From Alphaproteobacteria bacterium (GTDB taxonomy: Bacteria > Pseudomonadota > Alphaproteobacteria > MPNO01 > UBA830): DNA of 64,000 bases. A model generated the notes under the pieces. The model was given only the letters and a program-made list of their open reading frames with translations, had not been told where the DNA came from and did not search any database. Below are positions 51,881 through 56,364 of the stretch, in pieces. The stretch spans positions 2,048,001 through 2,112,000 of the forward strand of contig OZ219791.1 of assembly GCA_964291215.2 (NCBI GenBank), given 5' to 3'. Both the position numbers and the translations under genes were made by a program. Each line of letters begins with the position of its first letter. The stretch's first letter is position 1.

Positions 51881-53184
51881 CAACCAACCATGATTAACTC
51901 GTCGTTCATGAGGCCTTATATAGTGGCCTATGAGAATTGGTTTTCGACATCTGTCCACGACGACGGTTGATTGGCTGAAGGCGGCGTCGGTTGCCGAGAG
52001 CAGCACGCCCTGGCGCAGGGATTGTGCGAGCGCGAGGACTGGCGCAACGCGAAGGGCGAGCTGTGTCTTGCCGCGTGCGGCCCTGCCTGATCTTGCCTCG
52101 GCGCTCGGCATCGTCCTTCCTGCACCAGGGCCTCATGGCCTCGACACCCTTGAGCGGGACTGTCCCGACAAGCCACTCGCATGTTCTCCGGAGGAGCTTG
52201 GAGAGGTCACCGTGGAGCCGGTCGGCGAGGACAGGCGCCTGGCGATGATGGCGACCTGGCATCCCGAGGGCGAGGCGCCCGGATGAGCTACCGGATCACC
52301 TCGTCGCGCTACGGCCGCCTCGGCGGCCTGGTGTTCCGTGCGGCCAATTGGCATCAGAAGGCGCGCGACGACTTCTGGTCCCGGGGAGCGCGTGACGTCC
52401 ACCTCGGCAAGGTCGTCAACAACGCTCGCTTGCTGATACTTCCGTCGGTGAATGTTCCGGAGCTGGCCTTCCACGTCCTGGCCTGCCGGCGGCTTGCTGC
52501 GGACTGAGAAGTGACGCCGGTTCTGGCCTGCGCCCATGTGAGCCCCGAAGACACCGGCACGAGCTACAGGGCGGCAGGCCGGGAGCGTTGTGAGAAGATG
52601 ACCTCGGGTCGACCTCCCGGGGCCACCGGCCAGGGCGCACCGTGTGGATGAAGCCCCTGGCTTGGCAAGACGTGTTGTGGCGGGAGCGTGTCATGGGCCA
52701 GGCCGCACCCCTTGTCGATGATGGCGACCGGGCGATGAGGGAGTACAGCCGCAGCAACCACGGTGACGTGCGCATCCGCGACCGCCTTGTCACCATGGGC
52801 GTGGAACGATCGTCCCGGAGAGATCCTGCCGATGATCTTCCCCGGCGAGGCGGAACAGAAGGCGGCCTGCCGCCTGTTGTCGAACCCCAAGGTGACGATG
52901 GACCATATCCTCGAGGGGCATCAGGAAGCGATGATAGAGCGCTGCCGTCCGCAGCGCCGGGTCCTTGCCATCCAGGACACGACGTTCCTGAATTGCAATG
53001 GCCTGGAGGCGGGTCTTGTCGACATCGGCGGCTCGGGTGCCCTTGGCATTGCGGCCCATGCCGGGGTCGCCTTCACCGAAGGCGGCTGTGCCCTCGGCCT
53101 GTTCCATCTCGACGCCGACTTCCGTCTCGATCCGGATCACGAGAAGGGCGAGGAGAACGACAAGGAGAGCCGGCGCTGGCCTTT
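51881..53184 (+). mobile_element. DUF4338-IS4 transposase fusion, 5' part, degenerate
   Basis: MRIGFRHL...VDWLK, WHQKARD, VVNNARLLILP, GDVRIRDRL, VLAIQDTTFLN. Confidence 0.8.
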
Positions 53185-54050
53185 CAACCTGACACTATTA
53201 AGTCCATTGATTTCTGCATATCGTGTTCCCGCATTTTTCTGTGATGCTCGACGAAGTAGAGGAGGAGTTGGTATCCCTGCCAGAGTTTCTCGGTTCCCGG
53301 CAGGGGTTGGCGTTTGCCGGGGATGAAGCCTGCCACGCGTGCGACCTTGATGGCGAAGACTTCGATGGTCGGTTCGGGATCGGGAGGTCCACGAGGTTGG
53401 TGCTGTTTAGCGATCTTGTAGTTGTTCAGGGCCGTGATCTCGTCGCGGTGGACGATGCGGCTGGCCGGCGTGCGAGACGCTCGACGGTCATGACGCGGCA
53501 TGCGGTGATCGCGTCGAAGGCCGGACACTTCCTCAGGTCGTCGGCCTGGCCGGTCCTCGATCCGTGTGCCGACCTTCAGGGCCTTGAAGTATTCTTCAAT
53601 CAGCCATCGCCTTTCGTGGAAGGAGACGGTGTCGAGGGCAGCGGTGACGTCGCCTTCGGTGGTGAGCAGCATCCAGTCGAGAGGATCTGCCGGTAGGTCG
53701 GGTTCCGTGACGTGTACGGCCATCGTGGAGAGCGGCGGCGTTCCCCGGGGCTTCCGGTCCGGCGGCGCAAGGTCGACCCTTGCCGTGCGGCCTTCGAGGC
53801 CCTTGCGCTCCTTGCGGCGGCGCGGCCCTCCGCAGGCTGCGATGTCGATCGGCCTGGTCGCGATGCACGGCTCATCGGCCATGTGGTCCCGAAGGTCCCG
53901 TTGCGCGCCCGTTGCGGTGACCACGCGGCGGCATGTCGAGCGCCTGACGCGCACCAGCAGACCAGCTCCGGGCCAGCAGGTCCCGGATGTCGCCTTCACG
54001 GATCATCAGCACTTTTGTCGAGGGACAGGCCAGTTCCACGGCCCTGTCGT
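53185..54050 (-). mobile_element. IS4-family transposase, 3' part
   Basis: LDWMLLTTE, RRWLIEEYFKALKVG, VARVAGF...PGTEKLWQG; end CAACCTGACACTATTAAG. Confidence 0.85.
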
Positions 54051-54059
54051 ACCCGCCAG

Positions 54060-54900
54060 CGCCGCGCGCAGAAGCGGGAAAGCGGGTTACAGGCGGCCGA
54101 GCGCATACGACAGATCAGCGTCTTGTCGTCAGGACCTGAGGGAGGAGCCGGATGCGAACAGCGCTCGTCCGGATCTGGTGTGCCAGGCGAACTGGCAGAA
54201 GGCAGGGGGTGGAAGTCCCCCGGAACAAAGGAGTAACCAAACCGCGTTTCTCCGCGAGCCGTGCGTCGGTTCCCGCGAGGGGGCAGGCGAAGCGTCGGTA
54301 GCGGGGCTGATGGGCACCGAAAAGACGATGATCCGGGGTGCCGAGGTTTTCGGATCGGTCGAAGGCAACATCGCAGGCATCGATTTGGTGAGATGCCGGC
54401 GCGCCTCGCGGTGTCAGAGAATCCGTCCGTACTTCTTCTGTCGGGACCCTGGGAGATCTTCAAGCTGTCCCGCCTGTCGGGACCGCGCAGGGAAAGGAGA
54501 AAGCCGAAGCCTGTGATGAACGGTTTGAAGAAGGGGCCCTGTGAAGGCGGCGAACAAGGGAGCTTCTGCAAAGTTGGCGGAGGAAAGGGCCTCGACCAAG
54601 GGGAATTCGGGACACCAAAGCACGCGCCGAACGCAGTGTCGGGTGCCACAGGCGGCGGACCGGATACGGAAAGCCGCAGAGGTTCGACTGGAAGCGACTG
54701 GAGCGCATGACCGAGATTCTTTGGCCGCGCGCAACAATCCGCCACCCATGGCCGGACCAGCGGTTTGCCGTCAAGCACCCGAGGTAGGAGCCGGATGGAC
54801 TGGCGTCCATGTCCGGATCTGTGCGGGGAGTGTGCAGTAATGCGCATTCCTACCGTAACGGCGGGGGGGGGGGGGGGGGAACCCGGTTCCCTACCGCGAT
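54060..54900 (+). mobile_element. group II intron A (3' part, ORF deleted), host of a nested intron
   Basis: IEP stubs QAAERIRQ and DQRLVVRT*; DV GAGCCGGATGCG...CGCTCGTCCGGATC (54145-54175); DVI resumes at 54860 and ends CCCTACCGCGAT. Confidence 0.8.
54178..54859 (+). mobile_element. group II intron B, ORF-less, 682 nt, class E-like
   Basis: 5' GTGTG; GGTGCCGA...GAAGGCAACA; GGGAAAGG; DV GAGCCGGATGGAC...TCCATGTCCGGATC; DVI ending CCTACCGTAAC; IEP stubs VPQAADRIRKAA and HPWPDQRFAVKHPR*. Confidence 0.88.
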
Positions 54901-55231
54901 AGAGGCGGTGCTTGCCGGCGACTTCAACCACAACGTGCGATGGGACAAGCCCGTCTGGGCCAGCAATTTCCGGGAAACGGTGGAGATCCTCGAAGGCCTG
55001 GGACTGGTCAGCGCCGATCATGCGGCGAACGGCGAAGAGTTCGGAAAGGAGAGTTCTTACACGTACTACCATGCCCCGCAGAACCGTGCGCCGTATCACA
55101 TCGACTACATCTTCGCGCCCCGTGCCTGGACGGAGGCGTGTTTCGGGCTCGATGTCGGCTCCCGCGAAGACTGGATCGATTCGGGCTGGAGCGGCCACGT
55201 GCCGATCGTGCTCGACATCACCGACGCCTGA
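54901..55231 (+). pseudogene. EEP-family nuclease/phosphatase C-terminal half
   Basis: VLAGDFNHN...WDKP, YHIDYIF, WSGHVP. Confidence 0.8.
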
Positions 55232-55311
55232 TCCGCGTCGGCGTTCGGCTCCTTCGGCCGCCGCAGCCGTGGATTGCAACAGTTCGGCGCCTGTGACAGA
55301 TTGGAACCGCC

Positions 55312-56364
55312 ATGCAGTTCGACCTCGAAGCGGATTTGGTCAAGGAGAAGGCGAAAGCTCTGGGCGCAGATCTGGTTGGCATAGTTGGCGCCGACACGCT
55401 GAACGAGTTTCCGCCCGATCCCAAGTGGCCTCAGACTCCGGAGCGAATTTCACCCTTCGCGCGGAGCGTTGTCGTGGTTGCAAAGAGGATTCCGATCGGC
55501 GCCTTCAGGGCGAAGACCAATGTCCCGGTCCAGTATATCGACATGCTTGTCCTGCGCGCCATGGACAGGGCTGCCTACCGGCTCTCGCGCTGGATGGAGG
55601 ATCAGGGGTTCCCCTCGTTCGTGACGGCTGCGCAGGAGACCGACTGGAGCTACAAGAAGGCGAGTTACGGCCGCCTCAGCACCAGGCATCTCGGAATCGA
55701 GGCCGGTCTCGGGACCTTCGGGCTTGAGGTCAACATCCTTACCCCTGAATTCGGCCCGCGTATCTATCTCACCGGCATTCTGACGGAGGCGCGCATCGCG
55801 GCTGACGAGCGTATTACCGAACAGGTCTGCATCGGCGAGTCCTGCAGCCGCTGCCTGTATTCCTGTCCGCCCGATGCAGTGCGCCATTTCGGGATTGACA
55901 AGCGGGGCTGCGCCACCGAGGCGCAGGAATTCGGGTTTTCGACGATCATGAAATTCTGGCAGCACTTCATTGGAGAGCCGCCGGAACGTCGCCGGGAACT
56001 CCTCCGGGACCGGGAGATATTCGGTTTCTGGCAGGGCCTGCTGCGCGTCGTCGGTTCCTTCGGCGACTGCCCGAGATGCCTAGCCGTGTGTCCCGTCGGC
56101 AACGACTATCATGCGCATCTCGCCGACATCCAGAAGCGGATTCCCGAAAAGACGCCGGAGAAGGTTGTCAAGGCCAAGGCCTTCAAGGAGGCGCGCAAGA
56201 GCGGAGATCCGGTCGACGGGCTGAACGACTGGAATGTGAGGTGGGTGGGGCCCGACGGGTACAAGGGAATTGTCGCCCGTCAGCTGCAGGCGTTCAAGCG
56301 AACGCAGCAGGAAAAGGAACACGAGGCTGAGCAGCGCCGGCAGCTCGAGACAACCGGAGAGTAG
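55312..56364 (+). CDS. QueG/reductive-dehalogenase-like 4Fe-4S protein 1
   Basis: AKALGADLVGI, STRHLGIEAGLGTFG, TPEFGPR, CIGESCSRCLYSCP, CPRCLAVCPVG. Confidence 0.8.
   Translation: MQFDLEADLVKEKAKALGADLVGIVGADTLNEFPPDPKWPQTPERISPFARSVVVVAKRIPIGAFRAKTNVPVQYIDMLVLRAMDRAAYRLSRWMEDQGFPSFVTAAQETDWSYKKASYGRLSTRHLGIEAGLGTFGLEVNILTPEFGPRIYLTGILTEARIAADERITEQVCIGESCSRCLYSCPPDAVRHFGIDKRGCATEAQEFGFSTIMKFWQHFIGEPPERRRELLRDREIFGFWQGLLRVVGSFGDCPRCLAVCPVGNDYHAHLADIQKRIPEKTPEKVVKAKAFKEARKSGDPVDGLNDWNVRWVGPDGYKGIVARQLQAFKRTQQEKEHEAEQRRQLETTGE

Follow-up and report, generated by a model that had tools for sequence, protein, structure and literature searches.

In the 64,000-nucleotide stretch of DNA that was analysed (hereafter the window), an ORF-less group II intron, B, is nested exactly at the junction between domains V and VI (DV|DVI) of a second group II intron, A. 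Group II introns retrohome via reverse splicing, and we consider it likely, at a probability of about 0.8, that B reached this junction by ordinary retrohoming, since both of its targeting loops, EBS1 and EBS2, can pair with the conserved 3' strand of domain V. As far as can be judged from sequence, specialisation on domain V is a property of the EBS1/EBS2 state and not of the whole family to which B belongs, and the sub-lineage of B is likely to use other introns as landing pads. The clearest case of such specialisation comes from a different genome, G041; the pair of A and B in the window is itself most likely a relic.

A twintron at the DV|DVI junction

The remnant of A starts with the end of its domain IV (54055-54142) and continues with domain V and a linker (54143-54177), which form the 5' exon of B and end in CGTCCGGATCTG; A, B and the 3' exon of A all lie on the plus strand. 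Domain V of A has its AGC triad at 54146-54148 and is a two-helix hairpin with a 2-nt bulge and a 5-nt loop. Positions 54055-54177 correspond to positions 465-587 of a 624-nt ORF-less A-family copy in G000, the genome that carries the window (G000:C2:2115538-2116161), with 96% identity. B follows directly (54178-54859, 682 nt); it begins with GTGTG at 54178, finishes with AC at 54858-54859, and its end reads CCTACCGTAAC. These boundaries are fixed by the 13 5' ends and 17 3' ends of the B family, with differing flanks, that a blast search with B recovered in G000. Downstream come an altered domain VI of A ending in AT (54860-54900; compared with 26 intact A-type junctions and present in a read-derived contig) and the 3' exon of A, the C-terminal part of an endonuclease/exonuclease/phosphatase gene (54901-55231; Pfam PF03372, E = 4e-5, just under the cut-off), a segment that is single copy in G000. 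A reading of the window from its sequence alone had already described this order within 54145-54900, with domain V of A followed directly by GTGTG and the 682-nt B and then by domain VI of A, and its coordinates all hold.

The decisive check that the nesting is real was the comparison of empty and filled junctions. Among the 27 A-type domain V ends listed for G000, 26 run straight into domain VI and one, that of the window, into B, which bears out the twintron first proposed by the sequence-only reading. An 8.1-kb read-derived contig of run X1 covers 54770-55400 with no differences and no gaps, so that reads contain both the junction of B with DVI and the adjacent G run; X1 is possibly the source sample, and its agreement is therefore not independent. 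The empty DV-DVI join is present in read-derived contigs of X1, X3 and X4, and junctions between a host domain V and B occur in deep contigs of X1-X3. Elsewhere the twintron is intact, as in a G041 example with host domain I, RT, domain V, B and domain VI.

Over the window segment 54178-54859, the summed depths of B-family pieces in X1-X3 range from thousands to 200,000, compared with a depth of 13-55 for unique flanking DNA, and in one X1 contig the 3' end of one B runs into the 5' start of another. These samples thus hold the family in high abundance and in stacks. X4, labelled as a sponge metagenome, holds only diverged relatives, and a metagenome scan with a 34-nt pattern recovered a single locus, which is truncated and lies at a GATCTG site outside domain V.

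The Rfam model RF02005 (group-II-D1D4-6) matches B at 54212-54423 with 129.4 bits (cut-off 49), and RF00029 (DV/DVI) aligns over its full length at 54786-54859 with 32.6 bits (E = 2.7e-4), under its cut-off of 40. Two DV/DVI units had been expected in such a scan; that of B was recovered in this way, and the second domain V-type match, to RF04357 at 54142-54178, is weak (E = 0.11). The RF00029 alignment places domain V of B at 54787-54821, with the 3' strand CATGTCCGGATCTG, and domain VI, which has a bulged A and ends in AC, at 54822-54859. The domain V loop comprises 5 nt in A and 4 nt in the predicted fold of the window B, a loop of 5 nt being the class E trait. A putative alpha motif, ACCAAA (54236-54241), labelled after known group II structure at loop positions of RF02005, is complementary to alpha-prime, TTTGGT, in a terminal loop (54384-54389). 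An alpha-prime in this place, at the tip of the DId3 stem-loop, is described as a IIE/IIF trait (PMC3753933). The minimum free energy fold of the whole of B was uninformative (z -1.64), and EBS positions were taken from the Rfam alignment together with co-variation.

By the available tests, B appears to derive from a 1.92-kb class E intron by loss of the ORF. Full-length relatives of this size in other genomes encode an RT with YADD and without an endonuclease, and the homologue in G029 (443 aa) has RVT_1 and a weak GIIM only and ends just before domain V. Alignment with full-length and 730-nt relatives places the join left by loss of ~1.2 kb of the RT ORF at 54682-54683. The 730-nt ORF-less form of G041, to which the window B is 85% identical, is broken at the same point to within 1-2 nt; in a DNA tree, the window B and the G041 copies are not sisters with strong support. 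An RT tree, built without the B RTs of G041 and with one class E reference and none of class F or g1-g6, joins the B relatives to the disrupted intron of S. meliloti pRmeGR4b (presumed S.me.I4) with support 98/97; the class D and class C introns from this strain fall outside the group. The disrupted pRmeGR4b intron corresponds by its description to the class E intron S.me.I4 (PMC5894124).

Target recognition and occupancy

The sequence-only reading had tentatively paired CGGATC (54351-54356) with the exon end GATCTG. This hexamer lies in the loop of a hairpin of RF02005 and co-varies in relatives with the six nucleotides that close the 5' exon, as expected of EBS1; with IBS1 (GATCTG, 54172-54177, the end of domain V of A and the linker) it forms five Watson-Crick pairs and one G-U pair. 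The search for EBS loops also yielded EBS2, GACGA at 54324-54328, which forms five pairs with IBS2 (TCGTC, 54165-54169) within the 3' strand of domain V of A. EBS1 and the six bases at the exon end change together, giving at least five states (CGGATC or CAGATC with GATCTG, CGGAAC with GTTCCG, CAGAGT with ACTCTG, CGCATC with GATGCG, CAGAGC with GCTCTG). Likewise, EBS2 co-varies with target positions -13 to -9 in five states (GACG with CGTC, AGCG with CGC, AGTCC with GGACT, GGTACT with AGTACC, AGCTC with GAGCT). Among 27 distinct non-DV sites of G043-G045, which with few exceptions belong to the AGCG sub-lineage, 20 have a CGY whose first base lies at -13 to -11, against a background of 0.185 taken from the GATCTG sites of G000 (p = 5e-10); seven control windows further upstream gave CGY at 1 to 7 of the 27 sites. 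This count excludes duplicate flanks and the locus L215, which is non-DV upstream and DVI downstream and is apparently rearranged. Position +1 is relaxed (T 13, G 5, C 2 and A 1 at 21 non-DV sites). The combined target predicted for B, CGTC-NN-GATCTG, is the 3' strand of many class E-type domain Vs.

Members of the family are found at DV|DVI junctions in at least 11 genomes (G000, G029, G041, G043, G044, G045, those of the loci L053, L057, L075 and L117, and G001, the last by its 3' junction only), and their hosts comprise at least eight domain V types in addition to the family itself. In G029, a full-length RT-bearing homologue occupies the same junction. The genome scan gave at least 119 stretches with at least 96 distinct 5' ends and was not used to draw family-wide fractions; counts are complete for G041, G043, G044 and G045, and those for G042 cover a subset of its 27 copies.

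The clearest pattern is that of G041, where 41 of the 66 copies follow a host domain V, one a truncated domain V and 24 the 3' end of another B; none of the 66 lies at an unrelated site. Their EBS2 is nearly always GACG or TACG. By size, 36 are of ~730 nt, 21 are full length and nine are undetermined, and 37 arrays, with 25 distinct flanks, end in a host domain VI. Exact CGTC-NN-GATCTG sites are filled in 33 of 44 cases when they belong to a domain V and in none of 12 when they do not (Fisher p = 2.4e-6), a contrast between copies that are not independent, in which targeting is not separable from selection against insertions in genes. The exact pattern missed sites ending in A, and two of the 12 other sites may be domain V remnants.

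It could be argued that B has no real preference, but enters any GATCTG-like site, and that insertions in domain V survive since their hosts are dispensable and numerous. In agreement with this, 19 of 20 copies in G043 and eight of 10 in G044 lie at non-DV sites (one and two, respectively, follow a domain V), 30 B-type DV|DVI junctions stand empty in G043, which shows no self-nesting, and only four of the 32 exact CGTC-NN-GATCTG sites of G000 are in a domain V. However, the copies of G043-G045 mostly carry EBS2 AGCG, which mismatches CGTC. The many non-intron insertions of G043 also indicate that such insertions are not forbidden by selection, whereas G041 has none in 66 copies. Moreover, GATCTG occurs 5069 times in G000, so that targeting by the hexamer alone would rarely reach a domain V. 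We consider this alternative unlikely.

In G045, which has the AGCG loop as in G043, 11 of 13 copies follow a domain V, eight of these their own. None of the nine G042 copies whose EBS1 was read (CGCATC/T) follows a domain V, and 16 empty DV|DVI junctions of that genome match the searched pattern. As for G000, one of 13 family 5' ends follows a domain V and three of 17 3' ends precede a domain VI. Only one of its three readable GACG/CGGATC 5' ends follows a domain V, the other two, the closest siblings of B, being antisense in an IS66 transposase gene at CGTC-NNN-GATCYG. At G000:C1:700089 and C1:265834 (minus strand), B-family 3' ends are followed by a foreign domain VI, and their 5' parts have been lost to other repeats. 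Other B sub-families, with EBS1 CAGAGT and CGGAAC, apparently target fixed sites in IS4-type transposase genes resembling that of the window, one per strand (G000:C2:493653, 759751; C1:1512387, 250710; C2:1105048; labelled IS4 by resemblance to window positions 53184-53999).

The sequence-only reading had suggested that B aims at a conserved catalytic domain, and it took insertion of homologues at unrelated sites as evidence to the contrary. The first part is supported by the DV|DVI junctions of at least eight other intron types. Family-wide, many homologues do lie at unrelated sites, including 12 of the 13 5' ends of G000 besides the G043 and G044 copies, so that the claim fails by its own terms for the family as a whole; use of domain V depends on the EBS1/EBS2 state. 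The family can thus be regarded as a natural experiment in which near-identical introns, a few EBS bases apart, switch between domain V specialist and generalist.

Less probable still is that B reads the domain V hairpin as a structure, as class C introns do with terminator stems, base pairing being secondary. All domain V sites do fold as DNA, at -8.4 to -13.9 kcal/mol over 40 nt, and the use in G041 of host domain Vs, but of no exact non-DV match and not of B's own domain V, suggests that more than 10 base pairs may be read. Nevertheless, the median of the 27 non-DV sites is -5.6 versus -5.9 for matched background (p = 0.65), with z below -2 at one of 27. The hairpin is not needed at non-DV sites, almost all of which belong in this test to the AGCG sub-lineage, B's own type lying outside it. 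Besides, IBS1 and IBS2 are both inside the domain V stem, so that a formed hairpin would mask them. Finally, it is highly improbable that the nesting arose through misassembly or as a recombination chimera of the similar domain V ends of A and B: about one third of G000 is repeats, both domain Vs end in CCGGATCTG and none of the contigs listed bridges the 5' junction of the window by 31 nt on each side, but B starts precisely at GTGTG and ends precisely at AC, as recombination at domain V would not produce, its 3' junction is found without differences in a read-derived contig, and host-DV|B junctions recur in the deep X1-X3 contigs and in other genomes.

Stacking, possible self-avoidance and decay

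Under the preferred reading, retrohoming guided by EBS1 and EBS2, the RT of a full-length family member would have mobilised the ORF-less B RNA in trans, as in the precedent of TeI3, and this RNA would have reverse-spliced into DNA after CGTC-NN-GATCTG. Since nearly all of the recognised sequence is in the 5' exon, a filled site would remain a target and gather head-to-tail copies. In the GACG/CRGATC state, the family would land mainly at DV|DVI in genomes rich in matching host introns, such as G041, and other EBS states would direct it to IS elements and genes. Landing at DV|DVI should force strict inner-first splicing, an intact host needing B to be spliced out before domains V and VI rejoin, and should make ORF-less hosts usable too. 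In the window, A would later have been truncated beside the IS4 element and B would have lost ~50 nt of structure.

Loci L246 (G045:C38:555903-562085), L240 and L244 carry B in its own DV|DVI junction up to three deep with a spacing of 1881 nt, and these Russian-doll arrays are closed by repeated domain VI units. A-family introns end directly on the GTGCG start of another intron at G000:C2:736215, 2501535 and 153841, so that stacking is not limited to the B family. Head-to-tail stacks appear to fit re-insertion at an occupied site, a process demonstrated experimentally for another intron (PMC12584367).

It had been suggested from the sequence that B could nest in itself or in relatives. This is true of other introns and, in the sister sub-lineage of G045, of the family's own copies; it does not extend to B's own type, which is never nested in itself in G041 (0 of 66). 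The domain V of B in that genome reads ATGTCC in 47 of the 59 copies read and GAACTG in six, and none is invaded. EBS pairing alone fails to account for this unused domain V, which is one G-T wobble away. It is tempting, if doubtful, to see the GACG/CRGATC sub-lineage as a hyperparasite of group II introns, with a target that is hard to change. The host copy would be silent until B splices itself out, ORF-less satellites would stack in the same site, and self-avoidance would come from changes in B's own domain V strand (CACG to CATG or CAAG, GATCTG to GAACTG). If true, this would provide a natural brake on intron blooms and an arms race within the catalytic domain of a ribozyme. Many T-to-G and A-to-C changes separate the B copies at loci L174-L207 of G041, a pattern unlike that of G000; these changes reach EBS1 (CAGATC to CCGATC) and filled targets (GATCTG to GATCGG).

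Both introns of the window pair are damaged. A is without its 5' 464 nt and adjoins the remnant of an IS4-family transposase (53184-54060, minus strand; NCBIfam NF033590, E = 1.2e-30, below the curated cut-off), with a repeat boundary near the contact at ~54055-54060; that the 5' part of A is missing beside an IS4 insertion had been correctly noted. The further claim that A could splice once B is removed does not apply to this copy, as A lacks domains I-III in the window. Compared with intact copies, its domain VI begins with G instead of T and has an extended G run in place of ACC; the rejoined DV-DVI folds at -36.2 kcal/mol versus -41.6 for an intact copy. B has seven deletions of 5-13 nt relative to an intact relative and misses ~50 nt relative to intact ORF-less relatives. 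A single predicted helix of domain I is hit in its strands by two of these deletions, and two more lie close to the boundary of DI and DII; splicing of the window B is unlikely, given the seven deletions and in particular the two in this helix. Read-derived contigs also carry deleted forms of B (one in X1, one in X3). An intact family RT frame was found in none of the 17 G000 copies translated, which suggests that a helper is not on hand today.

Small deletions are a wider feature of G000 and possibly of more interest than the twintron. Its repeat copies contain 645, 1516 and 827 distinct clean gaps of 5, 6 and 7 nt, versus 71 of 4 nt (an example lies at 54302-54643), and full B-family copies have ~40 deletions apiece, whereas insertions of at least 3 nt are absent from them. 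The deletions recur at the same places, with a jitter of 1-3 nt, across different EBS sub-families, and microhomology of at least 2 nt is enriched (~48% vs 20%). The 5-7-nt peak is absent in the G041 and G042 loci. Hairpins and fixed motifs were tested as a cause, and no hairpin or strong motif was found. The pattern resembles what would be left if mobile DNA were cut and end-joined again and again, or were subject to slippage at hot spots. Furthermore, G000 has 48 runs of at least 15 G or C and never such runs of A or T; several lie in the G-tracts of intron domain VI, and the run of the window (54863-54879) is present in a read-derived contig. Upstream of the twintron (52181-53326), a Druantia DruA-like fragment (PF14236, E = 1.8e-9) precedes a second, oppositely oriented IS4 transposase fragment and is probably the N-terminal region of a decayed IS.

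Comparison with known intron-homing systems

In bacteria, the cases of intron homing that we found in the accessible literature concern the RT gene or domain I of the host, whereas the B family lands between domains V and VI. A bacterial lineage homing to DV|DVI was not found in the open literature; closed-access papers and intron-database entries may record cases. The accessible parts of PMC3552965, PMC3534033 and PMC5572947 hold no information on such landing. Among related arrangements, an inner intron in domain I is reported in Trichodesmium (PMC4649490), nested arrays in Methanosarcina (PMC4424553) and self-invasion in plant mitochondria (PMC7049729), and the commonest neighbours of group II introns are said to be other group II introns (PMC7306698). 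At least one published pipeline is described as dropping twintrons and another as missing the outer intron (PMC4028801; PMC8919778), and such nests are thus probably under-counted.

Domain V itself is interrupted in the Euglena psbF twintron, in which, according to a review (PMC8393795), one group II intron is inserted within domain V. This is described as one fixed chloroplast insertion of degenerate introns, whereas the B family is mobile and bacterial, with matching EBS loops and dozens of independent insertions. Stacking has a counterpart in E. coli EcKTE56.groEL (Gomes et al., 2025; PMC12584367), reported, like the B family, to place a second copy head-to-tail at an occupied homing site; its target, unlike that of B, is the groEL stop codon, and the tandems there rest on an EBS3 U-G wobble.

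The class E introns Cl.be.I2 and S.me.I4 resemble the B family in their endonuclease-less RT, an alpha-prime in the terminal loop and the same Rfam domain I model; the accessible text of their descriptions mentions no targeting of intron cores (PMC3753933; PMC5894124). EBS2 of class E is reported to be dispensable for splicing in vitro and was proposed to act in homing (PMC3753933). The EBS2 co-variation described here fits this role and provides genomic evidence for it.

The closest precedent for an intron homing into introns is TeI3 of Thermosynechococcus elongatus, an ORF-less intron of family F3 inserted in TeI4 (Mohr et al., 2010; PMC2882425). Like B, TeI3 is described as having lost its ORF by a deletion whose break point is shared, and, as proposed for B, as being mobilised in trans; the TeI families, like that of B, are set by diverged EBS, one homing to related introns and others to IS elements (PMC2882425). 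However, the insertion point of TeI3 is between two ATGs in the domain IV ORF of its host, whose ribozyme stays whole (PMC2882425), whereas B separates domain V from domain VI and belongs to the endonuclease-less class E. M.a.I5, UA.I3, P.l.I2 and B.th.I3 are reported to home into the RYADD codons of RT genes (PMC2504315). Similar to B, their EBS are tuned to a highly conserved part of introns, and they form nested arrays in lasting, harmless sites. Their targets are the codons of a protein active site; that of B is the catalytic domain of the ribozyme, which is present in ORF-less hosts too. B thus appears to work in the manner of TeI3 and M.a.I5, by standard chemistry at an unusual address.
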